DNA of 40,731 nt from Vulcanimicrobiota bacterium. GTDB lineage: Bacteria; Vulcanimicrobiota; Xenobia; Xenobiales; JADMJV01. Position numbers and translations under genes: made by a program. The notes beneath the pieces are model-generated. The model made no database searches. It saw only the letters and a program-made list of their open reading frames with translations, and was not told the origin of the DNA. Positions 1-12,239 of this stretch are shown one piece after another. The stretch covers positions 1 through 40,731 of the forward strand of contig JALHOV010000004.1 in assembly GCA_022842865.1 (NCBI GenBank), written 5' to 3'. The stretch's first letter is position 1; every line of letters starts with the position of its first letter.

Positions 1-250
1 TGTAACCCCGCCGCTCGGCCTCAACGACACCAAAGACTGAGCGAATCTGACGGCTTCGCACCCGGCCGCGCTCAAGCGTGAGAACATTTCCTTCTTTCTG
101 GACATCCAACTTTGGCCGCAGCTGGGGACAGCAGGCTACGGCCCAGGCCTGGTTTTGGACATCCCGCCTATTTTTTCTTCTCCCTGCGAAACCTTAGTCG
201 GACCGGCCGGTTAAATCGGACCTATTAGAAAACTGGGGAGGAACAAACCC

Positions 251-1066
251 ATGAATCAAGCGATAAGCGGTCTTCTACTGGTCGCGGCTTTGGCCGGCAC
301 GCTCACCGAAATTGCGGAGGCCCGCGGCGGCCGCGCAGGCGGAGGTAGAGCAAGAGCAAACTCGGGCAGCTTTCAGCGACAGGGCACTCGCACGGGCGCC
401 CAAGGGAACACCAGCACTCACGCTGGTCAAGGCACCTGGAGCCGCGGCAACGGCAGCTACGCCAGAAACTATGATGGCACGCGTACCGGTCCCAACGGCC
501 AGAGCCAGCAGGTCAATCGCAATCAGAACGTGACCAAAACGGGCGACAACAGCTATCAGCGGGACGGCTCTCACACCGTAACCGGCGCCAACGGAGAGTC
601 GCGCACCCGGACTACGTCCGGACAGGGAACTGTGCAAAAAACCGACAGCGGATACACCAAGAGTTATGACGGAACCATCACCACCGACAAAGGCAAAGTG
701 ATCAATGTGGACCGTAGCACCGAGGCGACACGCAACGCCGACGGCACGGTCAGCAAAGACCGTTCGGTGGAATACACCGACTCCAGTGGAAACGCCTTGG
801 GGACGGGTCAATCGAACTCCGTGCGCACCCCGGGTCAAGGCACCACCACCACCGGTAGCTACACCAACGCCAAGAACGGCAACACTTCTACCTACCAGGG
901 GTCGACTACGCCCAGCGGCGAGGGAGGCTATGGCCATACAAGCACCTGGACAGGTGCCCAGGGGAACAGCCGAACCACCAATGCAAACGCACGTTGGCAG
1001 TATATAGACGGCAAATGGGTAAAATCGGTGCAAAGCACCACCGCCCCTGTTACACCCGCGCCTTAA
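251..1066 (+). CDS. Secreted low-complexity Thr/Gly/Asn/Gln-rich protein, paralog A of 8323..9237
   Basis: 271-aa ORF with a GGGGAGG Shine-Dalgarno-like motif upstream of the ATG. Has an N-terminal hydrophobic signal-like segment (LLLVAALAGTLTEIAEA). Shares the C-terminal block NARWQYIDGKWVK and the internal TRTPGQGT block with 8323..9237. Confidence 0.7.
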   Translation: MNQAISGLLLVAALAGTLTEIAEARGGRAGGGRARANSGSFQRQGTRTGAQGNTSTHAGQGTWSRGNGSYARNYDGTRTGPNGQSQQVNRNQNVTKTGDNSYQRDGSHTVTGANGESRTRTTSGQGTVQKTDSGYTKSYDGTITTDKGKVINVDRSTEATRNADGTVSKDRSVEYTDSSGNALGTGQSNSVRTPGQGTTTTGSYTNAKNGNTSTYQGSTTPSGEGGYGHTSTWTGAQGNSRTTNANARWQYIDGKWVKSVQSTTAPVTPAP

Positions 1067-1310
1067 GCCCTGGGAGCTCAACTCCGTCGAGTGCTGGATG
1101 ATGTCTGTTGGGCAGCCTGCAGTCCGAAACCGAGACGCAGATGGTGATCCCGGCCTGGCCCGCGCCGACTTTCAGGGCCCGGGGCCGATGCCTTGATCGC
1201 CGCTCGGAAGGCCTTCGGATCAGCTTCCCTACGACCTCGAGGCCGCAGGCGAAAGGCTTTTTGGAACCCCCCAGGGAAATCGGCTTCGTGAGCATCCGAC
1301 CCCTTCTTCG

Positions 1311-3107
1311 ATGACTCTGAAACCCAAAGAGTTAGAGCAACAGGTCCGTCAGGTCTTGGACAGCCGCTCGTCCGATCGCGACTGCCTGACTGCTCTGGAG
1401 ACCGGACCCGCCAGTCATTTCGGCTTTCCCGGCCTGACCTGGTTGTGGGGGCCGGAGCTTTACCAACGCGACCGGGTCCTTTTTCGTGCTCTACTGCTGG
1501 CCAAGTTTTCCCACCAAACCTGGGCGGGCGGCTGGCGCTGGAGCAATACTCCCTGGTCGGCTCGCTTGCAAAGCTGGTTGGAGCAAGCCGACCAGGATCA
1601 GGACGTCGAGTTATGCCAGCGCCTGATCACCTGGAAGTTGCTGGCCCAGGCCGGGTTCACTTACTCCAAACTGTCACCACTGGTCCGTGCGGAACTGCTA
1701 CGCCGCACCAAGCACAAACCAACTAGCGCCCAACGTCGTCTGGAGGAGCGCAAGCTCGATTTCTGGTTCCAGCTCGACCACATCACCGCCCTGCAACTCT
1801 ATCGCCAGGACCCGGCATGCTCGGCCTACCTTTTGCGGCACCTGCCCCGCCCGGAGAAAGTGTTCTGGAAAGAGCTTTTTCAGCTGGCGCTGGGCCAGGA
1901 CGAAGCGTTCGCCTACAAAATCTACCGTGCCTTGATTCCCTTGTCGCAGTGGGAATCGGAGGTGAAAGAGCTGTGCCGGTCTCCCTTGAAGGCCTCAGAG
2001 CTCCTCAAGGAACTGGAGCGCCGCTCACCAACCTACGGCTACGGGGAGGCCTTTGCCAGGGTTCTCTACCAGATTTTGCAGGAGCGCGGCCGGGACGCTT
2101 TTGCCTATGTCATCCCCCAGCTCAAACGAGTCTGGAAGCCGCTGCTGGGCCGCGGAAACTATGGCAAGATGCTGGAGTTGGCCGACGCCAAGGGTTGGGA
2201 TGACCTGTGGTGCGCCATTCTGCGCACCTGCGCGTCTTCTAAGGAGTTTAACACCAGCCTGCGCAAACTGGCGGCCCAACCGGGCAGCCCCAGGCTGCCT
2301 GGCCTGAGCGGCGTTTCCAGCGAATGGAACTTTGGCGCGGTGGGTCTGGCCCGCGTGCAGATTCTGGACAACGACACCGCCCTGGCGCTCTACAGGGCCA
2401 ATCCGGATTGGTTAAGGGGCCCCTTCAAACTGAACCTGCAGGTGCACCCGTCGCAAAAAGGCTACACCGGCTTGCTGCAACAGCTGATGGACCGGGGGGA
2501 AGAGGAACTGGTCGACCTGCTGGCCAGCCGCTACATCCTCAGTTATCAACCTCTTCCCGAAGTCCAACTGTTGACCGATTACTACGCTGCTCTGGGCGAT
2601 TCGCGCGCCCGCCGCGGGGCCAACGTGCTGGGCAAGCTGCCCGCCTATTGCATCTGGAACTATCCCGAACTGATCCGTAAGAACCGGCTGGCACGCGCCC
2701 TCTACGAACGCTCCATAGCCGACTATGCCCAGGACCCGCTGGCCTTGTCGGACCTGGTGGAAGCTTCGGAAATACACGTCATGGCGCTGGGTTACCGGGC
2801 CCTGAGCCAGGCCGCCCCGGACGAGGCGGCGCGCCATCTGGTGCTGCTGCTGGGCTGCCTGTTTCGGCCTATGCAGCGCCTCACCCGCGGCTACGCTCTG
2901 GCCGCCCTGGAGCGGGCCTCCCAGACCAACCAGGGAACGGCCGCGCGCATCCTGGCGGCCGCTCGCGAAGCCCAGCGCCTGCCAGATGAGCGTTACCCGA
3001 AAGAAGCCCTACTCTCCCTGCTGGGTTCTTTGCTGAATCGCTGGCCCGAGCTACGTGGTCCCCGAGAACAACCGGTGGTTTACCGCCGCGAGGTCAGTCG
3101 TGTTTAG
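1311..3107 (+). CDS. Hypothetical 598-aa protein, apparently all-alpha/helical-repeat, with no catalytic motif recognised
   Basis: Long ORF with non-repetitive, protein-like composition. Its stop codon (3105-3107) overlaps the GTG (3100) of the next gene, which suggests translational coupling. Confidence 0.65.
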   Translation: MTLKPKELEQQVRQVLDSRSSDRDCLTALETGPASHFGFPGLTWLWGPELYQRDRVLFRALLLAKFSHQTWAGGWRWSNTPWSARLQSWLEQADQDQDVELCQRLITWKLLAQAGFTYSKLSPLVRAELLRRTKHKPTSAQRRLEERKLDFWFQLDHITALQLYRQDPACSAYLLRHLPRPEKVFWKELFQLALGQDEAFAYKIYRALIPLSQWESEVKELCRSPLKASELLKELERRSPTYGYGEAFARVLYQILQERGRDAFAYVIPQLKRVWKPLLGRGNYGKMLELADAKGWDDLWCAILRTCASSKEFNTSLRKLAAQPGSPRLPGLSGVSSEWNFGAVGLARVQILDNDTALALYRANPDWLRGPFKLNLQVHPSQKGYTGLLQQLMDRGEEELVDLLASRYILSYQPLPEVQLLTDYYAALGDSRARRGANVLGKLPAYCIWNYPELIRKNRLARALYERSIADYAQDPLALSDLVEASEIHVMALGYRALSQAAPDEAARHLVLLLGCLFRPMQRLTRGYALAALERASQTNQGTAARILAAAREAQRLPDERYPKEALLSLLGSLLNRWPELRGPREQPVVYRREVSRV

Positions 3108-4575
3108 TTATGCCACCCCCAGCCTCTTCCAAAGCGACCTGAACCAGGCCCGCCTGGGCCTGTGTTGCGACCAGGACCGTCCGGTCGAATGGGAAGCTCG
3201 CCTGATCGAGCACATCCCCCTGGTACGCTTCGCTCTGCGCGCCCTGGGCGAACTGATCTGGTCCGGCGACGAAGACGGTCGCGCCCGACTGGATCCCATC
3301 CTTACGGCTCACCCCGATGGTTTGCTGGCCGAAGCCTTCTCCTCCGATCTGGCCGCCTATGGCCGCCTGTGGCTGAGTCCGCAACTTTACGAAGTGCGCG
3401 GCACCCCGCTGTGGGGTACTACCAACGTCGATTTTTCGAGCTGGCTGTGGGGCGCACTGGGCGAGATGCGCAGCAGTCGGGAAACCTGGCTGCGCCTGAA
3501 TCCTCAGGGGTTTGCTTTGGAGACCCTGGGCGCGGGCGGGCGCTTCCAACCCAAAGTAGACATCCCCAACGATTGGTTCCGTGCTTTCCTGGAGTTGCAG
3601 GGAGCTCTGACCCGCCCCTGCACCAGGCTACGCGTCCCCCCGATGGATTTGTTGGCCCCGATTCGCTTCCTACGCCACTCCAAAGGTCGCCTGAGCCCAC
3701 GTGCGCTCCGCTATGAGTGCCATCCAGAGGGCTGGAGCATCGTGCTGGAGCCTTGGGAAAAGCGCTTTGCCCTGCGCGCCGACCAGGGCGGCGAGCCGCG
3801 AATCCTGCGCACCTGGGGGCGTCAGAGGCTGCGCCTGATCGAGCCCCTGCTGCCCTTCGCCGAATCGGTAGAAATCCGCCTGCTGGGCCGCGCCATGCCT
3901 CACTTTTATCGAGTTCAGCTGCCGGGGATGAGCTTTCTGTTGGGGCTGACCGGCTGGGGGCGGCAGAGCTTTGCGGCCGAATCCGGCTACTCGCTGTTGC
4001 GCGGGCTGCCGCAGGCACAGTCTGAAGAGGCCCTGTCCACTCGCGAGCATGAGCTGCGCCAGAAGCTGCTCTCCCCCTACCACCCGCTCGATGAGGAATT
4101 GGTGCGACGCGGACTGGCCCTTACCGATTTAGATCGAGGCCAGACCCGCTATCGTCCGCTCACCCTCCAGCCGCTGGATCCCAAGGTCCTCTATCCCCCT
4201 GACCTGAGGGCCGAGGAAGCAGCCACTCTAAAAGCCTCGGTGCAGGCCTGCTGGGTCCAGGAACAGCGCAAGCTCAAGAGTCTGATCACGCCCCAGGGCA
4301 AGGTCCAGCGAGAGCTGATCTTTCGCGACTGGAAAATACAGGGCGAGTGCCAGGGCCACCCTCTCGAACTGGTGGTCAGCGAGCGCGAGCAAATCCTCTT
4401 TGGGCGCTGCGACTGCGCCTTTTTCCAGAAGCATTTGCTCAGCCAGGGACCGTGCTCGCATCTGCTGGCGCTCTTCGAATCCAGCCGAGATTTGCGCGCT
4501 CAGAACCTGCCCAGCTCGCTGGAGGTCCGAGAGGTCCCGTCGCGGCAGGAAGTAGGCGAAGATGGCGAAGAGTAG
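3100..4575 (+). CDS. SWIM zinc-finger domain protein (C-terminal SWIM, N-terminal region unknown)
   Basis: The C-x-C-x12-C-x-H signature (CDCAFFQKHLLSQGPCSH) is encoded at 4408..4461. I chose the GTG at 3100, preceded by GAGG at 6-nt spacing, over the ORF-track start at 3055, which overlaps the upstream gene by 53 nt. Confidence 0.8.
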   Translation: MFSYATPSLFQSDLNQARLGLCCDQDRPVEWEARLIEHIPLVRFALRALGELIWSGDEDGRARLDPILTAHPDGLLAEAFSSDLAAYGRLWLSPQLYEVRGTPLWGTTNVDFSSWLWGALGEMRSSRETWLRLNPQGFALETLGAGGRFQPKVDIPNDWFRAFLELQGALTRPCTRLRVPPMDLLAPIRFLRHSKGRLSPRALRYECHPEGWSIVLEPWEKRFALRADQGGEPRILRTWGRQRLRLIEPLLPFAESVEIRLLGRAMPHFYRVQLPGMSFLLGLTGWGRQSFAAESGYSLLRGLPQAQSEEALSTREHELRQKLLSPYHPLDEELVRRGLALTDLDRGQTRYRPLTLQPLDPKVLYPPDLRAEEAATLKASVQACWVQEQRKLKSLITPQGKVQRELIFRDWKIQGECQGHPLELVVSEREQILFGRCDCAFFQKHLLSQGPCSHLLALFESSRDLRAQNLPSSLEVREVPSRQEVGEDGEE

Positions 4576-4579
4576 CCGG

Positions 4580-4594
4580 GCCTCAAGGAAAGTG
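4580..4594 (+). repeat. Left arm of a long-range inverted repeat (candidate retron a1)
   Basis: GCCTCAAGGAAAGTG is complementary to 4723..4737 (CACTTTCCCTGAGGC) at 14 of 15 positions, with one A-C mismatch. Two further G-U pairs are possible outside the arms. Confidence 0.6.
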
Positions 4595-4722
4595 TGCACC
4601 AAAGTTAGCCGTTTATGCTGCGGTGTTTCGCCGCAGCGGCGAATTGTCGCCATAACACCGCCAAGGTCCCCATCGTACGCAACGAAGGGGAGCCCTGAGT
4701 CCAGAGCCTCGTTAGTAACGGC

Positions 4723-4737
4723 CACTTTCCCTGAGGC
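4723..4737 (+). repeat. Right arm of the long-range inverted repeat (candidate retron a2)
   Basis: Complement of 4580..4594. Contains the GAGG (4733-4736) that sits 7 nt upstream of the RT ATG. Confidence 0.6.
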
Positions 4738-4743
4738 TTTGTT

Positions 4744-5985
4744 ATGAGTCTGTGGGATTGGATAAAACAGAAGCTGCTGGGTATCCCACCGCAGCGCGAC
4801 ACCTCTCGTCTGGAACCGGACCGAGAAGGCGTGTCCGAAAAAGTAGACGTGAGTGGCGCCCCACTCAAACCATCGCATCGCCGTCGCGCTCTGCGCGACC
4901 GGCGCCTGCTGCCCAAAGCCCGAGCTCCCGTCGGCAAGCGGCCCCAGGTGATGTCGCTGGCGGAAGCGGAGCGCCTCTTTTCAGCCAGTCAGCGCAGTCG
5001 CAATCGCCGGCAGCGCGATCTGCTGGCCGATCCCGAACAATTGCAACGTTTGGGCCTGCCGCTTTGGTCACGCGAAGATCAAGTGGCCGCCGCGCTGGGC
5101 CTGACTCTGCCCCAACTCTGGCACTTTGCCATGCATCGCCAGGGCGAGGCCCATCCTCACTATGTGGCTTTCGCAGTTCCCAAGCGTAGCGGGGGGGACC
5201 GGATCATTCTCGCTCCCAAGCGCCGCCTGAAGGCAATGCAGCGCAAGTTGCTGCAAATGCTGGCCGAAAAACTTCCGGTTAGCCAGGCCGCCCACGGCTT
5301 TCGCAGCGGTCACAGCACGCTCACCAACGCCCTCCCCCATTTGAAGCAAAAAGTAGTCCTTCGATTCGACCTGAAAGACTTCTTCCCCAGCTGCAACTGG
5401 GCGCGCGTGCGTGGACTGCTGATCGCCTACGGTTACAGCTTCCCGGTGGCCACCACCCTGGCCCTGCTGATGACCGAAGCGGAACGACAACCGGTGGAAA
5501 CTCCCGACGGCCTGGTCTTTGTTCCGGTGCGCACGCGCTACTGTGTGCAAGGAGCCCCGACCAGCCCGGCCCTGGCCAATGCGCTGACCCTGAAATTGGA
5601 CCGCCGCCTGCTGGGGTTGGCGCGCAAATTGGGCTGGCAGTATACGCGTTACGCCGATGACCTCACCTTCTCCGGCCAGACACCTGAACAGGTCGGCCTG
5701 CTGAAAAAAGCCGTCGAAGGTATCGTGGAAAGCGAAGGCTTCGCCCTGAATGGCGCCAAAACGAAAGTCATGCGCAGTGGACGCTGCCAGAGCGTAACGG
5801 GAGTGGTGGTCAACCAGGTGGCCGGCCTCTCCCGTCAGGAACGCCGCCGCCTGCGGGCCGCCCTGCACCAGGCCGGTGGCCAACCCGATGCCCAGCTGAG
5901 CGGCAAACTGGCTTATCTCCAGGGACTCAACCGCGGGCAAGCAGAAAGACTGCGGCGGCCCCGCGGAGGCCAGGTTCTGGACTGA
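4744..5985 (+). CDS. Retron-type reverse transcriptase with a basic N-terminal extension of about 100 aa
   Basis: RT motifs are present in order: KRSGGDRIILAP, HGFRSGHS, RFDLKDFFPS, QGAPTSPALAN, YTRYADDLTF (YADD at 5650..5661) and NGAKTKV. The retron-typical SVTGVVVN (VTG at 5794..5802) follows. An alternative internal start exists at the ATG at 4951. Confidence 0.9.
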   Translation: MSLWDWIKQKLLGIPPQRDTSRLEPDREGVSEKVDVSGAPLKPSHRRRALRDRRLLPKARAPVGKRPQVMSLAEAERLFSASQRSRNRRQRDLLADPEQLQRLGLPLWSREDQVAAALGLTLPQLWHFAMHRQGEAHPHYVAFAVPKRSGGDRIILAPKRRLKAMQRKLLQMLAEKLPVSQAAHGFRSGHSTLTNALPHLKQKVVLRFDLKDFFPSCNWARVRGLLIAYGYSFPVATTLALLMTEAERQPVETPDGLVFVPVRTRYCVQGAPTSPALANALTLKLDRRLLGLARKLGWQYTRYADDLTFSGQTPEQVGLLKKAVEGIVESEGFALNGAKTKVMRSGRCQSVTGVVVNQVAGLSRQERRRLRAALHQAGGQPDAQLSGKLAYLQGLNRGQAERLRRPRGGQVLD

Positions 5986-6026
5986 CGGATCCCGAACTCT
6001 CGTCCCCAAATCACGCAGGAGGCAAG

Positions 6027-7436
6027 ATGAGCAAGCGGTTGGGATGGTGGAGCGGGTTTCTCTTGGCCTGCCAGTTGAGCGGTTGCGGAGTCTCCTCTCA
6101 GACCAACCCGGTGCCCCCTCCCGCCTCCCCTCCCCCTGGTTGGAATTGGCTGGCCCAGACGCGTTGGGCGGTGCCGCCTCAGGACTTGCGCGCCTACCTG
6201 CTGCGCCAGGGCACTTCCGAGCCAATTCCCCTGACGGAACAGATGGTGTTGCAGATTGAGCGTGTCGAGGACGGCCTGTTAACCGGCCAGGCTCGTGTGC
6301 AAACCTCCATCCCCACGCCCCTGTCGGACGGAGCAGTCACCTCCGCCGACCTGGCGGGCAGCATGACCCCGGAAGGACGGCTGGATCTTTCTCTGACCAA
6401 CCCAGATGGCCGGAGGACCCGTATCTCCGGCGCACTCTTGCAGACCTCCTCGGGCTGGAAGTTACAGATCCAGAGTGTCGCCGGGTCGACGGACCGCCTG
6501 GTTCAAAACGCCGGCCTCGTCTTACTGGCAGCCGATCAGACTGCCGCCGAATTGACTGAAACCTCGAAAGAATCCGAGCCAGACCCTTGGAGCTGGCTGC
6601 CCGGGACTTCCTGGTACGTGCCAGTAGACTATCTGTTGGCCTATGTCGTCGGCCCCCCTGGACGGGCGCCTTTGCCCATTAGCGATCAAACCCTCTACAC
6701 TCTCCAGGGCTATGACCACGGTTATTTCTGGGGACCGACCACCACCACCATGACCCCCGACAGCGGAGTGGGCAAGTTCGGAACGCGCAGCAGTCACCTG
6801 AATCTGCTGGGCTGCGTCAGTCCTCAGGGATCCATCTTGCTCTCCTTCAGCCCCTCCGACCCCGACAACCCGGCCATCACAGGCTATGGGGTGATGCAGA
6901 GACTGGACGGCGAGTGGACCATGGAAAATCAGATGGCCTCCGAGAGCGCCGTCACCGTGACTCACTGGGCCTACATGAAACAGGTCTTTCCAGGCGTCGT
7001 TCCCAGTCCGCCACTGCCCGTGAACGAACTTCCCGGGCAATTGGCCGCTACCCAACGTTGGGCTTTCCTGAAAAACTCCAGCTGGCAAAACAGCTCCGCC
7101 ACCCAAAAAGGCTTACTCTCCAACGGCTTCGCCAGCCATCCGGCAACCGTCCTGGAGGAAGTGACCTATGCCATCCGAGACTTCCGCAGCGGATACTTTA
7201 GCGGGACCACCCGACTGCGCCTCCAAGGTCAGACGGAAGATTTCAACTTGGCCGGCAGCGTCACTCCCGAGGGAGCTCTTTACCTGTTTTTCATCCCCAC
7301 TTCCGCAGCCGGCGCCACCAGTACGGTCGGGCTCGGTTCCATGCGGGCCATTCCGAATGGCTATACCATGCAAACGCAAACCCTCAGTCCTGGCGAGGTC
7401 CAACTCGTTCACTGGTCGGACATGCTGCGCAACTGA
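6027..7436 (+). CDS. Lipoprotein with three tandem divergent domains of about 140 aa
   Basis: AGGAGG lies 4 nt upstream of the ATG. Signal sequence with lipobox LSGC. Each third of the protein repeats the pattern W-x-W-L..W.VP...L.AY and G(S/C)(M/V)(T/S)P(E/Q)G.L.L(S/F). Confidence 0.75.
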   Translation: MSKRLGWWSGFLLACQLSGCGVSSQTNPVPPPASPPPGWNWLAQTRWAVPPQDLRAYLLRQGTSEPIPLTEQMVLQIERVEDGLLTGQARVQTSIPTPLSDGAVTSADLAGSMTPEGRLDLSLTNPDGRRTRISGALLQTSSGWKLQIQSVAGSTDRLVQNAGLVLLAADQTAAELTETSKESEPDPWSWLPGTSWYVPVDYLLAYVVGPPGRAPLPISDQTLYTLQGYDHGYFWGPTTTTMTPDSGVGKFGTRSSHLNLLGCVSPQGSILLSFSPSDPDNPAITGYGVMQRLDGEWTMENQMASESAVTVTHWAYMKQVFPGVVPSPPLPVNELPGQLAATQRWAFLKNSSWQNSSATQKGLLSNGFASHPATVLEEVTYAIRDFRSGYFSGTTRLRLQGQTEDFNLAGSVTPEGALYLFFIPTSAAGATSTVGLGSMRAIPNGYTMQTQTLSPGEVQLVHWSDMLRN

Positions 7437-7466
7437 CCGTCCCACTTTACAACAGGGCCTGAGCCT

Positions 7467-8240
7467 ATGTCCTGCGAAACCTCCGACATGACCTTACGCG
7501 CCCCACAACCAGGCAAGCGCCCGCTTCGCGATAGTGACATCCTCCCATATGACGATGGAGTCCCCATGGAAACGACCCAGCATCGGATTCAGATGAATCT
7601 TCTCATTGAAACCCTGCAGACTTATCTGCGCAAACGGGAGATTAACGCCTACGTGGCCGGCAATAACTTTCTCTACTATCAGAAAGGAAAACCGCCCAAG
7701 TTTTGCGGTCCCGACTTTTATGTGGTGCTGGGTCGCCAGGAAACAGACCAGAAATCCTATGTGGTCTGGGAGGAAGACAACCGCTTTCCGGACGTGATTG
7801 TGGAACTCTTGTCGGCCACCACCGAGGCGACCGACCGGGGAGCTAAATTCATTCGCTATCGCGACCTGTTTCGCACCCCGGAGTACTACCTCTATGACCC
7901 CATCAGTCAGGTTTTCGAAGGCTACCGGCTCACAGAGGGACAGTATGTGGCCATTGCGCCCTCACGGAAATCACTGGCTTGTAAATCCCTGGGGCTGAGT
8001 CTGGCGGTGCGGGGCAAATGGCTACGCTGGCTAGACTCGGATGGAGTCGTATTGCTAACCGGAGAGGAACTAGCCGAGCAGGAGCGCGAGCGAGCCGAGC
8101 AGGAGCGGGAGCGAGCCGAGCAGGAGCGCGAGCGAGCCGAGCAGGAGCGCGGGCGAGCCGAGTATGAGCGCGGGCGAGCCGAGCGGCTAGAAGCCGAGTT
8201 GGCCAGACTGCGTGCTCTTCTGCCCCCGGAACTCGCCTGA
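7467..8240 (+). CDS. Uma2-family (DUF820) restriction-endonuclease-like protein with a C-terminal charged heptad-repeat tail
   Basis: Shows a typical Uma2-like pattern: PYDDGVPMETTQH, GPDFYVV, PDVIVELLS, then YRDLFRTPEYYLYDP. The start is uncertain (ATG 7467 or ATG 7488). Confidence 0.75.
   Translation: MSCETSDMTLRAPQPGKRPLRDSDILPYDDGVPMETTQHRIQMNLLIETLQTYLRKREINAYVAGNNFLYYQKGKPPKFCGPDFYVVLGRQETDQKSYVVWEEDNRFPDVIVELLSATTEATDRGAKFIRYRDLFRTPEYYLYDPISQVFEGYRLTEGQYVAIAPSRKSLACKSLGLSLAVRGKWLRWLDSDGVVLLTGEELAEQERERAEQERERAEQERERAEQERGRAEYERGRAERLEAELARLRALLPPELA
8073..8186. repeat. Tandem 21-bp in-frame repeat, about 5.4 copies, encoding AEQERER heptads
   Basis: GCCGAGCAGGAGCGCGAGCGA repeats at 8073, 8094, 8115, 8136 and 8157 with 0-4 substitutions each, plus a partial copy from 8178. 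Confidence 0.9.
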
Positions 8241-8322
8241 AGTTTTTTTAGCAAGACCGCAACCCGAGACCGTTCTATCGGTTCTATGCACCATCTGACG
8301 GGTTGAGCAAAGAGGAGGTTTT

Positions 8323-9237
8323 ATGAAAAATTCGAGCACTGTGGCCGGAGCGTTAATGCTTGCCGGGGTCCTGCTTCTGTCTCCGGTGGCTGAGGCACAG
8401 GGCCGGGGGGGCACCCGGCAGGGAACTTCCACCGGCACTCGAGGAAACAGGAGCTACCAGGGCACTCGCACCGGCACCGGAGGCCAGACTTCCACCGTCA
8501 ACCGAACCAATCAGGTGAATCGGACCGGGGAGAACACCTGGCACCGCGACACCAACCAGACGGTCACTCAACCCAACGGAAAGACGCGCTCCTGGCAGGC
8601 CAGCGGCGATGGCAGCGTCAACAAGACCGAAAATGGAGCCAATCGCCAGTACAACGGCACCATCACCAACGACAAAGGGCAGTCGGCCACGGTCAATAAG
8701 TCGGCGGACGTGACCCGGAGCGGCGATGGAACAGTCACCCGCGACAAACAATCCACCATCACCGGCCCGAACGGACAGACGACCACCAGGGAGAGCACGC
8801 ACACCGCCACCAAGAATGAGGATGGCAGTGTCACCCGCACCATCGACTCCACTTCAACAGGTCCCAATGGCCAGAGTGTCAACCGTGACGGAACCAGCAC
8901 GACGGTAAAGAATGAGGACGGCACCTATACCACCGATCGGCAATCCACGGTGACCAATGGACAGGGGGACGTCATGGGAACCGGCCAATCGACCACCACG
9001 CGAACCCCGGGCCAGGGCACCCAGACCAGCGGAAACTATACCAATTCGCAAGGCAACACCTGGCAATACGAGGGCTCTACCACTCACCCCGAGCCCGGAA
9101 CGACCCAATATTCGGGAAGTGTAACCAATCCCAACGGAGCCACTGGCACCCGCACTAGCAACGCCCGTTGGCAGTATATCGACGGCAAATGGGTCAAGAC
9201 CGTAGAGGGTTCAGCGACAAGCACCTCCGCCCCCTGA
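8323..9237 (+). CDS. Secreted low-complexity Thr/Gly/Asn/Gln-rich protein, paralog B of 251..1066
   Basis: AGAGGAGG lies upstream of the ATG. Signal-like N-terminus ending in the probable cleavage motif AEA-QG. Same architecture and conserved C-terminal NARWQYIDGKWVK as 251..1066. Confidence 0.75.
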   Translation: MKNSSTVAGALMLAGVLLLSPVAEAQGRGGTRQGTSTGTRGNRSYQGTRTGTGGQTSTVNRTNQVNRTGENTWHRDTNQTVTQPNGKTRSWQASGDGSVNKTENGANRQYNGTITNDKGQSATVNKSADVTRSGDGTVTRDKQSTITGPNGQTTTRESTHTATKNEDGSVTRTIDSTSTGPNGQSVNRDGTSTTVKNEDGTYTTDRQSTVTNGQGDVMGTGQSTTTRTPGQGTQTSGNYTNSQGNTWQYEGSTTHPEPGTTQYSGSVTNPNGATGTRTSNARWQYIDGKWVKTVEGSATSTSAP

Positions 9238-10123: not shown

Positions 10124-10307
10124 TTGCTTTTGCTCCTTTTGACTGTTTGGATTTGCCTGTCCAAAATCTTTGTTCGCACCGGAACTTCGGGAAAAAGCCG
10201 GCGCAGATCCTTGTCCGAATAGAACCGAGGCAGCAGGCTTTGAGCGAGCGAGTGGGAAACTAGTCGGTGGACGGGGAGTCCTAAAGGCTTTGGGGAGGGT
10301 TGACCAC

Positions 10308-12239
10308 TTGCGGCTGCACCATATCCGGCGCCGAGGCCTCAGCTTGTTGGAGATCGTCGTATCGATGGGGCTGGTCGTGCTCTTCGTGGCGATGTCCGTT
10401 ATGAACCCTGCGCCGGCACGCGAGCGGGCCGGCACGGATGCGCTCGCACAGGTGGTGGCCGCGGAACTGCTGCGCTGTCGCCAGATCGCCCTGGCCCGTC
10501 ACATCCCCGTGGCACTCGGCTTCCCCAGTCAGGGCGCCACCACTCCCATCACCCAGCAAGCCTACCGACTGGAGGGCTTCGAGCCCCTTCTCACTCAGGT
10601 GGTCGACTTTGCGCCCGAAACCCCCAACAGCTACGTAGTCTCAGGTCACTATCCGCTCGTGGGAGGCTTTACATGGAAGCCAGCCGGAGTCGCCTTAGGT
10701 CAAAGCCTGGCCGGATTTGACCTGGCGACCTGGCCGGACCCCTACCCCAGTGACCCCAAGCTGGTCTTCACTCCGGCCGGAACGGTGGTCTCCAACCTGC
10801 CCAAACTTCAGGGGAATTACCAGTTGCAGGTCGGGGCCGGAGTAAGCAGCGCGCCCAGTCCCCTCTTCGGCCAACCGCTGCATCAACTGAACCAGGTTCA
10901 GTTGCCTCACACCGTAAAGATTTCCGCCTTGGGAAGCGTGTCCGTCGAGGCCGGTCTCCCCCAGGCTCAGCCGGGCGTGCAGGTGACCCAACCCATTGGC
11001 ATCAGCGCCGCGCCCGCCAGCGGACCTGCCGCGCCCCAGCCGGGGCCGCCTCCCGGGGACGTGGCGCCGGAGGTTTTCGACTATCGTGTTTCCCCGCCGC
11101 CCCTGGCCGCCACCCTGCCGCCCGGCATCAACGCCACGGTGCCCCAGGGTAGCAGTCTGGGTATGACCATGATCGCGCGGGAGCCTAACGGGGAAGCCAT
11201 CACCGGCAAGTTCTGGATCACCCGGGTCCCTCAGAACACGGGCGTTTTTTCGCAGCAAAGGGTGATGACCTTCGACCCCCGGCTGGGAGGCCAGGTCCTG
11301 CACGTCGAATTTGTGCCTCCCCCTGAGGATGCGGTGGGCCAAATCTATGATGTTCAGTGCAAAGCTTTTGATCCGCAGGGGAATTTTGCTACTTTTTTGA
11401 TCCCCGGCGGTGGCAAAGTGGCTCTCACCGAGCCCAACCGGGTCCTTTTCGAGTCGAACCGGAGCGGAAATCACGAAGTCTACAGCTGCAAGTCAGACGG
11501 CAGCGGCATTGTTCAGCTGACCAGCGACCCAGCCAACGATTTCGCCCCCCGCTGGTCGCCCGACGGGCGCAAGTTTCTCTTTCATTCCAACCGAAACTTC
11601 GGCATCTTTGGGCTTTTCTCGGCCAACGCCGACGGTAGTAACGTAAAGCCCGTGGTCACGGCCGGAATTTTGGGGGGCAATAAGCCGGCCGATCACGGCG
11701 CCTGCTGGTCCCCGGACGGTACTCAGATCGCCGTCGTCAACACGGTCGGAGGATGGTGGAAGGTGAAGGCGGACGGGTCAAACCCGGTGGAGCTATTTGC
11801 CGGAACCGGCCCGAGCCGACTTGCCTGGCATCCCGGCGGGCGGTGGGTGGTTGGCATAGACGCCGACTCCATCTGGCTGGTAGATTCCACCCTGGTGGAT
11901 GCGCCCCAGAGGTTGCTGACCGACATCACCTTGTTTGCCGACTCGCAGGTGGCTTTTTCACCCGACGGCAGCAAGCTTTTATTCAATCGCAATCGCGACA
12001 TCGAGGTCGCCGACTTCGCTCCCATCGCGAATGGCCTGAGCAATTTCCTGAACCTTACCAATAGTGCCGACCTGGAGGCCCAGGCCTGCTGGTCACCCGA
12101 CGGGCTCTCGGTGCTGGTTGACGCTTACAGTCCTGACTGCACCATTTACCAGTATTTCTTAAGTGCGCCCGGCGTGCGCAAAGACTTCCTGGTGCGCCCT
12201 CTCTGTGACAACGACCCTTCTTGGGGGCGCGCGTTTTGA
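10308..12239 (+). CDS. Prepilin-type N-terminal domain protein fused to PD40/TolB-like beta-propeller repeats
   Basis: Likely TTG start at 10308, 8 nt after GGGGAGGG. Leader RRRG-LSLLEIVVSMGLVVLFV resembles a prepilin cleavage/methylation motif. C-terminal repeats of the form SNRSGNHEVY, FAPRWSPDGRKFLFHSNR, CWSPDGTQIA, AFSPDGSKLLF and CWSPDGLSV. Confidence 0.7.
   Translation: MRLHHIRRRGLSLLEIVVSMGLVVLFVAMSVMNPAPARERAGTDALAQVVAAELLRCRQIALARHIPVALGFPSQGATTPITQQAYRLEGFEPLLTQVVDFAPETPNSYVVSGHYPLVGGFTWKPAGVALGQSLAGFDLATWPDPYPSDPKLVFTPAGTVVSNLPKLQGNYQLQVGAGVSSAPSPLFGQPLHQLNQVQLPHTVKISALGSVSVEAGLPQAQPGVQVTQPIGISAAPASGPAAPQPGPPPGDVAPEVFDYRVSPPPLAATLPPGINATVPQGSSLGMTMIAREPNGEAITGKFWITRVPQNTGVFSQQRVMTFDPRLGGQVLHVEFVPPPEDAVGQIYDVQCKAFDPQGNFATFLIPGGGKVALTEPNRVLFESNRSGNHEVYSCKSDGSGIVQLTSDPANDFAPRWSPDGRKFLFHSNRNFGIFGLFSANADGSNVKPVVTAGILGGNKPADHGACWSPDGTQIAVVNTVGGWWKVKADGSNPVELFAGTGPSRLAWHPGGRWVVGIDADSIWLVDSTLVDAPQRLLTDITLFADSQVAFSPDGSKLLFNRNRDIEVADFAPIANGLSNFLNLTNSADLEAQACWSPDGLSVLVDAYSPDCTIYQYFLSAPGVRKDFLVRPLCDNDPSWGRAF

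Follow-up and report, generated by a model that had tools for sequence, protein, structure and literature searches.

Positions 1311–5985 of the DNA analysed here, a 40,731-nucleotide (nt) stretch of contig JALHOV010000004.1 from a Vulcanimicrobiota bacterium (hereafter, the window), hold what we read, with a probability of about 0.85, as a complete member of the Mx65-like subfamily of type XIII retrons. It consists of a gene for a HEAT/ARM-like repeat protein (ARM), a gene for a SWIM zinc-finger protein (SWIM), a structured noncoding RNA (ncRNA) of ~165 nt and a gene for a reverse transcriptase (RT), which together form a single co-oriented operon, with the ncRNA occupying the entire gap between the SWIM and RT genes. 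Type XIII is defined by a clade-10 RT together with a cluster-114 protein that carries a DEDE motif, a winged helix and a C-terminal SWIM finger of the form CxCx12CxH; a HEAT/ARM-like gene usually precedes the SWIM gene, in many members though not in all, and the members given are Mx162, Mx65, Sa163 and Ne144 (Mestre 2020, PMC7736814). Each of these hallmarks is present in the window, in the form of a clade-10 RT, a cluster-114-type SWIM protein and a preceding HEAT/ARM gene. The original prediction had recognized a retron-type RT behind a structured RNA, saw no canonical effector nearby and proposed that the retron might be of an unclassified type. However, the two adjoining upstream genes are type XIII accessory genes (one matching PADLOC SWIM_XIII at 1.3e-96, the other encoding a HEAT/ARM solenoid), and together with the RT they match the published definition. 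Because these accessory genes are present upstream, the locus is not an effector-less, unclassified retron; it is a further copy of an already classified family.

The 413-residue open reading frame (ORF) contains the RT motifs in order, as first described: NALPH (the NAxxH of region X), QGAPTSP, YADD and a VTG that lies inside SVTGVVVN in region Y are all located (Table 1). The protein matches Pfam RVT_1 at 4.4e-20. Of 64 PADLOC models for RTs, the top one is RT_XIII (5.8e-122, 406 bits, 348 of 469 profile positions), followed by RT_other at 298 bits, with the other retron subtypes lower. The retron models of NCBIfam score 193–200 bits, which is sub-threshold, and its non-retron models give weak, likewise sub-threshold matches (group II RT/maturase, 54 bits; Drt2, 30; Drt3a, 17.5). 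By hidden Markov model (HMM) score, the RT belongs to Mestre clade 10, that is, to type XIII. The same scores, 193–406 bits for retron models versus 54 or less for the others, agree with the earlier claim that this is a retron RT and not one of the group II intron, diversity-generating retroelement (DGR) or Abi classes. More than 7000 homologues are found at an E-value of 1e-20 or better, and the N-terminus is conserved across the 20 homologues compared. Some RTs of the subfamily (P0062, P0102, P0106 and P0119; ~525–530 residues, 57–60% identical) carry a C-terminal WGR domain, located at residues 467–528 in P0062 and P0102, the two that were scanned for PF05406. The WGR module, known from PARPs, binds nucleic acids.

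The gene order is conserved far beyond the window. Our comparison covers 80 genome loci and 10 more around close RT homologues (loci are numbered with the prefix L). The order ARM-like gene, SWIM gene, gap of ~165–350 nt and RT, all on one strand, is constant in the subclade closest to the window (L002–L013, L017, L029 and L081–L090; RT identities of 50–88%). It thus recurs in ~25 loci from at least six phyla, the hosts being metagenome-assembled genomes (MAGs) or isolates of Verrucomicrobiota, Planctomycetota, Myxococcota, Xenobia, Armatimonadota and the Alpha-, Beta- and Gammaproteobacteria. In every Mx65-like locus with sufficient flank, the ARM gene stands directly 5′ of the SWIM gene (33–86% amino-acid identity), and the genes beyond the ARM–SWIM–RT block vary from locus to locus. 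Type XIII is described in a recent survey as abundant and as the phylogenetically most widespread retron type.

The 168-nt gap between the SWIM and RT genes (4576–4743) is closed by a 15-nt inverted repeat, 4580–4594 / 4723–4737, in which 14 of 15 positions (93%) are complementary and whose arms are separated by 128 nt. When the gap was shuffled 1000 times with dinucleotides preserved, this value was never equalled (the best was 13, seen three times), which confirms the repeat as originally noted. With G-U pairs, the a1/a2 stem grows to 4573–4594 / 4723–4744, reaching from the SWIM stop codon to the RT start codon. The several internal hairpins that had been proposed are borne out as well: the gap folds at −74.6 kcal/mol versus a shuffle mean of −52.1 (z = −5.98), and 0 of 200 shuffles fold as well. 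Since the Shine-Dalgarno-like GAGG of the RT lies within the a2 arm and the stem reaches the start codon, folding of the ncRNA could block initiation of RT translation.

Each locus has its own a1/a2 arms of 12–31 bp, unrelated in sequence from locus to locus, with their complementarity kept. Among the arms of 24 loci, the best-stem score averaged 27.6 for cognate arms versus 15.4 for non-cognate ones, and 19 of the 24 cognate pairs exceeded the 95th percentile of the controls. Conservation and covariation across ~25 homologous loci thus uphold the proposal that the repeat represents a1/a2 arms enclosing msr and msd. No Rfam family covers the ncRNA, either at gathering thresholds on the whole window or in E-value mode on 4450–4850; the sole hit, STnc380 at 14 bits, was dismissed as chance.

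Inside these variable arms lies a conserved core whose length is nearly fixed among loci (118–120 nt) and in which 36 alignment columns are invariant. Its identity is 64–98% across phyla, compared with ~65% for neighbouring coding DNA. In the 24-sequence alignment, the proposed structure leaves 91.5% of cells paired versus 35–57% when the partners are slid by 1–3 columns. Changes on both sides are seen in 18 of 33 core pairs, and none of 500 shuffles comes up to the observed values for pairing, double changes or covariation. In 26 other loci, among them L001, L015 and L082 from outside the training set, the covariance model built on the core (R1) scores 95–129 bits; there and in the window, the match lies 5′ of the RT and on its strand without exception. 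Weaker R1 matches (15–54 bits), on the RT strand and mostly 5′ of the RT, often with large insertions, occur in more distant type XIII loci, namely L016, L071, L018, L023, L014 and ~20 further ones. These suggest that ncRNA ancestry is shared across type XIII.

Near its ends, the core is closed by an inner helix of 4–5 bp, where pairs 6-122, 7-121 and 8-120 of the alignment (A5) show 10, 7 and 12 compensatory changes. The helix encloses two msr hairpins followed by the msd, which here consists of two short hairpins, not one long stem (Table 1). Support for hairpin 4 is weaker because its changes are mostly one-sided, between G-C and G-U. Two further pairings were set aside. The minimum-free-energy pairing GCCGUU/AACGGC of the window is not kept in other loci, where the conserved register is GUUA/UAAC. 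An 8-bp helix 4620–4627 / 4654–4661 (GCGGUGUU / AACACCGC) forms without mismatch in the window and is 80% paired over the loci, but none of its changes is compensatory, and it competes with hairpin 1, whose pairs covary; either a second conformation or simple sequence conservation may account for it.

The msd (window 4655–4714, A5 columns 56–117) is as conserved as the msr, with a mean column identity of 0.81 versus 0.79 in at least six phyla. Its invariant nucleotides are CGCC, CCC..ACG..GGG and GUCCA. In most retron families, msd sequences vary more. This equal conservation suggests that the multicopy single-stranded DNA (msDNA) made from the msd, as predicted here, is recognized in a sequence-specific manner.

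In retrons, the priming G usually sits in a TAGC at the inner end of the a1 stem, or in GAGC in Mx65 (Simon 2019, PMC6868368), and the legend to Fig. 2B of Mestre 2020 (PMC7736814) describes two opposing Gs. The window has TAGC, in which AGC is invariant in 24 loci, and the myxobacterial members have GAGC (Hyalangium, L003; Archangium, L011; Myxococcus hansupus, L090). Since TAGC follows the inner helix and is faced by G4715, G4608 is predicted to be the branching residue and A4714 the first templated base. Mx65 itself has a DNA of 65 nt, an RNA of 49 nt with the branch at its fourth residue, and an RT of 427 residues. Applied to L090, these dimensions give a self-consistent 6-nt overlap of the 3′ ends, which falls on the 3′ strand of hairpin 2. 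If the window follows the same register, we infer an RNA of ~4605–4653 and a 67-nt msDNA running from 4714 to ~4648, whose 3′ ends would likewise overlap on the 3′ strand of hairpin 2. The predicted msDNA folds at −12.6 kcal/mol, with a modest z of −2.4.

The SWIM ORF is open from GTG 3055, and homologues favour the start at GTG 3100, as their alignments begin at residues 14–18 of the 3055 ORF; from this start the gene overlaps the ARM stop by 8 nt. The zinc-finger residues C437, C439, C452 and H454 are invariant in 30 homologues, and the spacing CxCx12CxH equals that of Mestre 2020 (PMC7736814). Four acidic residues, D65, D73, E78 and D111, are also invariant. The last acidic position of the DEDE motif, residue 150 (nt 3547–3549), is apparently Q in the window and in the relatives closest to it, whereas most homologues have E.

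The AlphaFold2 model of the SWIM protein has a mean predicted local distance difference test score (pLDDT) of 79 and a predicted template-modelling score (pTM) of 0.77. It is laid out as four β-α-β3 units (residues 1–285), a winged helix (~309–351) and long β-hairpins that bear the SWIM finger. In a Foldseek search of the PDB, the top 50 matches are all PCNA, 9-1-1 or related clamps, with E-values of 8e-9 to 2e-7, a probability of 1.00 and template-modelling (TM) scores, normalized to the target, of 0.55–0.68 over ~285 columns. The independent BFVD library returns viral PCNAs, phage β-clamps and herpesvirus processivity factors. The N-terminal ~285 residues are thus predicted, from the model, to adopt a PCNA-like DNA-clamp fold. 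Neither a PDB profile search nor an hhalign comparison with a PCNA sequence gave a sequence-level signal for this fold, and a test for internal repeats was negative; the likeness is therefore one of predicted fold only. The modelled clamp disagrees with an earlier reading of the DEDE region as transposase-derived (PMC7736814). In the literature searched, no paper links retron SWIM proteins to clamps, so this lead goes beyond it.

The ARM protein is modelled as an all-α solenoid with a pLDDT of 91.4, and its Foldseek matches in the PDB are SF3B1, designed armadillo proteins and karyopherins. At the sequence level, it has no match in Pfam, PADLOC or NCBIfam, even at an E-value of 5–10.

Table 1 Features of the type XIII retron and its immediate downstream neighbours in the window
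Feature	Position	Strand	Basis and remarks
HEAT/ARM-like repeat protein	1311-3107	+	598 aa; type XIII accessory gene, Mestre cluster 216-like
Type XIII SWIM protein	3100-4575	+	491 aa; PADLOC SWIM_XIII 1.3e-96; Pfam SWIM 4e-05
SWIM zinc-finger motif CxCx12CxH	4408-4461	+	CDCAFFQKHLLSQGPCSH, aa 437-454
Outer a1 arm	4580-4594	+	to 4573 with G-U pairs; pairs with its own a2
Conserved ncRNA core (msr and msd)	4602-4721	+	120 nt; covariance model R1, 132.4 bits, E 5e-38
Inner a1 helix	4604-4607	+	GUUA, ends immediately 5′ of the priming G; pairs with UAAC 4716-4719
Predicted branching (priming) G	4608	+	in TAGC 4606-4609; AGC (columns 9-11) invariant in 24 loci
msr hairpin 1	4617-4637	+	GCUGCGGUG-UUU-CGCCGCAGC; invariant GGUGYUUCGCC apex; 99.1% paired; compensatory changes in 5/9 pairs
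msr hairpin 2	4638-4651	+	GGCGA-AUUG-UCGCC; weaker; 70.8% paired; compensatory changes in 3/5 pairs
Predicted msd template	4648-4714	-	msDNA of ~65-67 nt would be the reverse complement, starting opposite A4714; from opposing G and L090 Mx65-type geometry
msd hairpin 3	4665-4694	+	GG..CCCC.UCGU-loop-ACGA.GGGG..CC; 93.5-97.9% paired; 5 pairs with compensatory changes
msd hairpin 4	4696-4711	+	UGAG-UCCAGAGC-CUCG; 97.9% paired
Opposing G4715, then inner a2 helix	4715-4719	+	UAAC 4716-4719; G-U (columns 118-119) nearly invariant
Outer a2 arm	4723-4737	+	extendable to 4744; includes RT Shine-Dalgarno-like GAGG 4733-4736
Retron RT	4744-5985	+	413 aa; clade 10 / type XIII (PADLOC RT_XIII); conserved ~130-aa N-terminal extension
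RT motif NALPH (region X)	5326-5340	+	aa 195-199
RT motif QGAPTSP	5548-5568	+	aa 269-275
RT motif YADD	5650-5661	+	aa 303-306
RT motif VTG (region Y)	5794-5802	+	aa 351-353
Lipoprotein-like ORF	6027-7436		lipobox LSGC; within insertion relative to L081
Uma2-family putative endonuclease	7467-8240		Pfam 3.5e-20; PADLOC PDC-S03

The limits of the unit are set by comparison with L081, the nearest relative, which is 82% identical to the window in nt sequence over 1317–5945. There, the gene after the RT is a homologue of window ORF 8323–9237, so the ~2.3 kb of window 5986–8245 are an insertion relative to L081. The ORF with a lipobox signal (6027–7436) and the Uma2 gene, both of which were considered as retron parts, are absent from L081 and from other loci and thus lie outside the retron. 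The original prediction had treated 1311–7436 as the functional block; its portion 1311–5985 stands as the unit, and 6027–7436 drops out. A Uma2 homologue (36% identity) directly follows the RT in L086 and in no other locus.

Paralogous same-strand genes of unassigned function flank the cassette on both sides, at 251–1066 and 8323–9237. ORF 251–1066 is 41% identical to the L081 homologue of 8323–9237, and its final ~80 nt agree at 76% with the 3′ terminus of the same homologue. Within a few kb of the retron, the window (10170–12239), L081 (11062–13035) and L086 (436–2475) each have a PD40 / peptidase S9-type gene (657–689 residues), a hint that the closest hosts have their chromosomal neighbourhoods partly in common. 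The remainder of the window is ordinary chromosome, with PelF/PelG-like exopolysaccharide genes, NDH-2, a response regulator and WD40/PD40 proteins, and the G+C content of the cassette is 63.0% versus 60.2% for the window. A scan of 900–6300 found no T-run terminator. The IMG/VR viral contigs hold no close relative of the RT, the best match being 41% identical over the RT domain and belonging to other retron types.

By extension from the biochemistry of Ec86, Mx162 and Mx65, the operon transcript would fold and the RT would bind the msr hairpins. The RT would then prime on the 2′-OH of G4608 and copy the template leftwards, from ~A4714 to ~4648, giving a branched msDNA of ~65–67 nt. Host RNase H would strip the copied RNA, a short RNA-DNA hybrid would stay at hairpin 2, and the branched msDNA-RNA would remain bound to the RT. 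We see even odds that the RT-msDNA complex joins both accessory proteins as an anti-phage sensor/effector assembly, in which the conserved msDNA would be the ligand of the clamp-like, winged-helix and SWIM protein. A further proposal, possible but doubtful, is that the type XIII accessory protein joins a PCNA-like clamp, a winged helix and a SWIM finger in one chain and works with a HEAT/ARM scaffold, and is not a nuclease derived from a DDE transposase. On this reading, type XIII retrons would possess no conventional toxin; they would work by binding their unusually conserved msDNA, or invading DNA, in the manner of a clamp, or by assisting the RT.

Several points weigh against reading the locus as a complete, working type XIII retron of the Mx65-like kind. 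The link to Mx65 itself was drawn through the M. hansupus orthologue and the dimensions of Mx65; we infer the production of msDNA, the branch at G4608 and the limits of the template. In locus L015 (Burkholderiales MAG, 1–3000), an ARM-like gene, the ncRNA (R1, 95 bits) and the RT occur without a SWIM gene, an arrangement that fits the co-evolution of the RT with the ARM protein, and not with SWIM, noted by Mestre (PMC7736814). Neither accessory protein has a recognizable toxin or enzyme domain in Pfam, PADLOC, NCBIfam or PDB profiles, and no sigma-70-like promoter was matched in a scan of 900–6300. Type XIII correlates with host 16S, and vertical inheritance with a possibly non-defence role has been considered (PMC7736814). 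In the literature searched, no paper shows phage defence by any type XIII retron. That literature also holds no paper on the function, effector mechanism or biological role of the type. The genes downstream of the RT in L015 encode an SDR (short-chain dehydrogenase/reductase) and a 3-hydroxyacyl-CoA dehydrogenase.

The main alternative keeps the type XIII assignment and takes the accessory proteins as msDNA-handling cofactors, such as a clamp or processivity partner of the RT or a scaffold presenting the msDNA, instead of agents of toxin-antitoxin-like abortive infection, with a domesticated cellular role or a non-toxic form of defence. It rests on the predicted clamp fold of the SWIM protein, whose N-terminal ~285 residues resemble PCNA in two independent libraries, and it would suit the lack of any detected toxin or enzyme domain in the ARM and SWIM proteins. 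The conservation of the msd at the level of the msr, pointing to sequence-specific msDNA recognition, the agreement of type XIII with host 16S and the vertical inheritance discussed for myxobacteria (PMC7736814) are in keeping with it, as are the ordinary chromosomal context (Pel genes, NDH-2, response regulator) and the lack of a close relative in the IMG/VR viral contigs. Yet every retron type tested so far is, as abstracts in the literature also describe retrons, a defence system with an effector; the flanks differ even among close relatives, as would be expected of a mobile or accessory element more than of a housekeeping gene set; and the clamp is a predicted fold that finds no support at the sequence level. 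Taken together, we consider a cofactor role unlikely, though it is the strongest competitor.

The remaining alternatives are far less probable. An unclassified retron without a known accessory or effector gene nearby, as first suggested, would agree with the absence of OLD/HNH, nucleoside deoxyribosyltransferase (NDT), 2TM, TOPRIM and DUF3800 proteins in the vicinity (Pfam, PADLOC) and with an ARM gene that no HMM in Pfam, PADLOC or NCBIfam matches; it is nevertheless highly improbable given SWIM_XIII at 1.3e-96, RT_XIII at 5.8e-122, the HEAT/ARM fold, the published type XIII architecture and the identical three-gene order in ~25 loci. Equally hard to credit is a structured gap that acts as a terminator, attenuator or translational-control hairpin and is no RT template. 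The a2 arm does hold the GAGG of the RT, so the stem could also modulate RT translation, but a 120-nt core 64–98% identical across phyla, beside coding neighbours at ~65%, is not what such a hairpin predicts; moreover, the AGC with an invariant G that ends the a1 stem and the opposing G are retron-specific, no T-run terminator is seen, and the element always accompanies a retron RT. Least probable of all is an RT of another class, be it group II intron, DGR or UG/Abi/DRT. For this there are the weak matches to the group II (54 bits), Drt2 (30) and Drt3a (17.5) models, all sub-threshold, against retron models at 193–406 bits and the presence of both NAxxH and VTG. Rfam shows no group II intron or other RNA family in the window, and the neighbours of the RT are type XIII genes. 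A type XIII retron of the Mx65-like subfamily is therefore the reading we retain.

As an annotation, the locus carries little weight, being one more copy of a type classified in 2020. The founding members of type XIII, Mx162 and Mx65, date from the 1980s. What the cassette 1311–5985 and its ~25 relatives do provide is a cleanly delimited three-gene unit for a poorly understood type, with an ncRNA core that is strongly conserved and nearly fixed in length between variable a1/a2 arms that are a textbook case of covariation. The predicted clamp fold of the SWIM protein could guide experiments on the mechanism of type XIII, and if the clamp reading is true, the mode of action would differ from those of the retrons characterized so far.

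Among known systems, the window is closest to Mx65 (Retron-Mxa2). The M. hansupus locus L090 has a 621-residue ARM-like protein, a 530-residue SWIM protein, a 165-nt gap and a 428-residue RT in the same order, and it carries the ncRNA core of the window (R1, 117.8 bits). A cluster look-up of the L090 RT returned generic names only. Of the Firmicutes, Mx162, Mx65 and Ne144 variants of the type XIII ncRNA, the Mx65 one is favoured by this homology between the RNA of the window and its counterpart in a Myxococcus locus. The RT resembles that of Mx65 in size and bears an N-terminal extension; the small ncRNA would suit an msDNA of ~65 nt, and the priming G follows a1. Differences are also apparent. 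The window has TAGC in place of GAGC, its RT keeps the asparagine of NAxxH that is reported to be missing in Mx65 (PMC6868368), and that RT is ~50–58% identical to those of the myxobacterial members. Moreover, the host is no myxobacterium, and its nearest named relatives are MAGs of Xenobia, Armatimonadota, Gemmataceae and Verrucomicrobiota.

Mx162 (Retron-Mxa1), Sa163 (Retron-Sau1) and Ne144 (Retron-Nex2) share the RT_XIII clade, the SWIM-type gene upstream and the position of the ncRNA between SWIM and RT, but their ncRNAs and msDNAs are longer (144–163 nt). Mx162-like loci of our comparison, such as L035, L038, L039 and L065, have gaps of ~280 nt and reach no more than 15 bits under the Mx65-like model, RT identity is ~45–50% over the RT domain only, and the ARM-like gene of the window is not detectably similar to anything there.

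With Ec86 (Retron-Eco1, type II-A), the reference for the mechanism of msDNA synthesis, the window shares the a1/a2 stem, a (T)AGC that holds the priming G directly after a1, an opposing G before a2, msr hairpins followed by msd, and an RT with NAxxH, YADD and VTG. However, the Ec86 RT belongs to another clade and its effector is a nucleoside deoxyribosyltransferase-like protein, whereas the partners in the window are the clamp-like, winged-helix and SWIM protein and the HEAT/ARM protein, and the msd is highly conserved across phyla in the family of the window. With PCNA and the sliding clamps, finally, the likeness is that of the N-terminal SWIM model, which aligns with clamp structures over ~280 columns. 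The SWIM protein differs from them in having no sequence similarity and no detectable internal repeat and in being fused to winged-helix and SWIM modules; what it shares with the clamps is a predicted resemblance of fold, not membership of the family.

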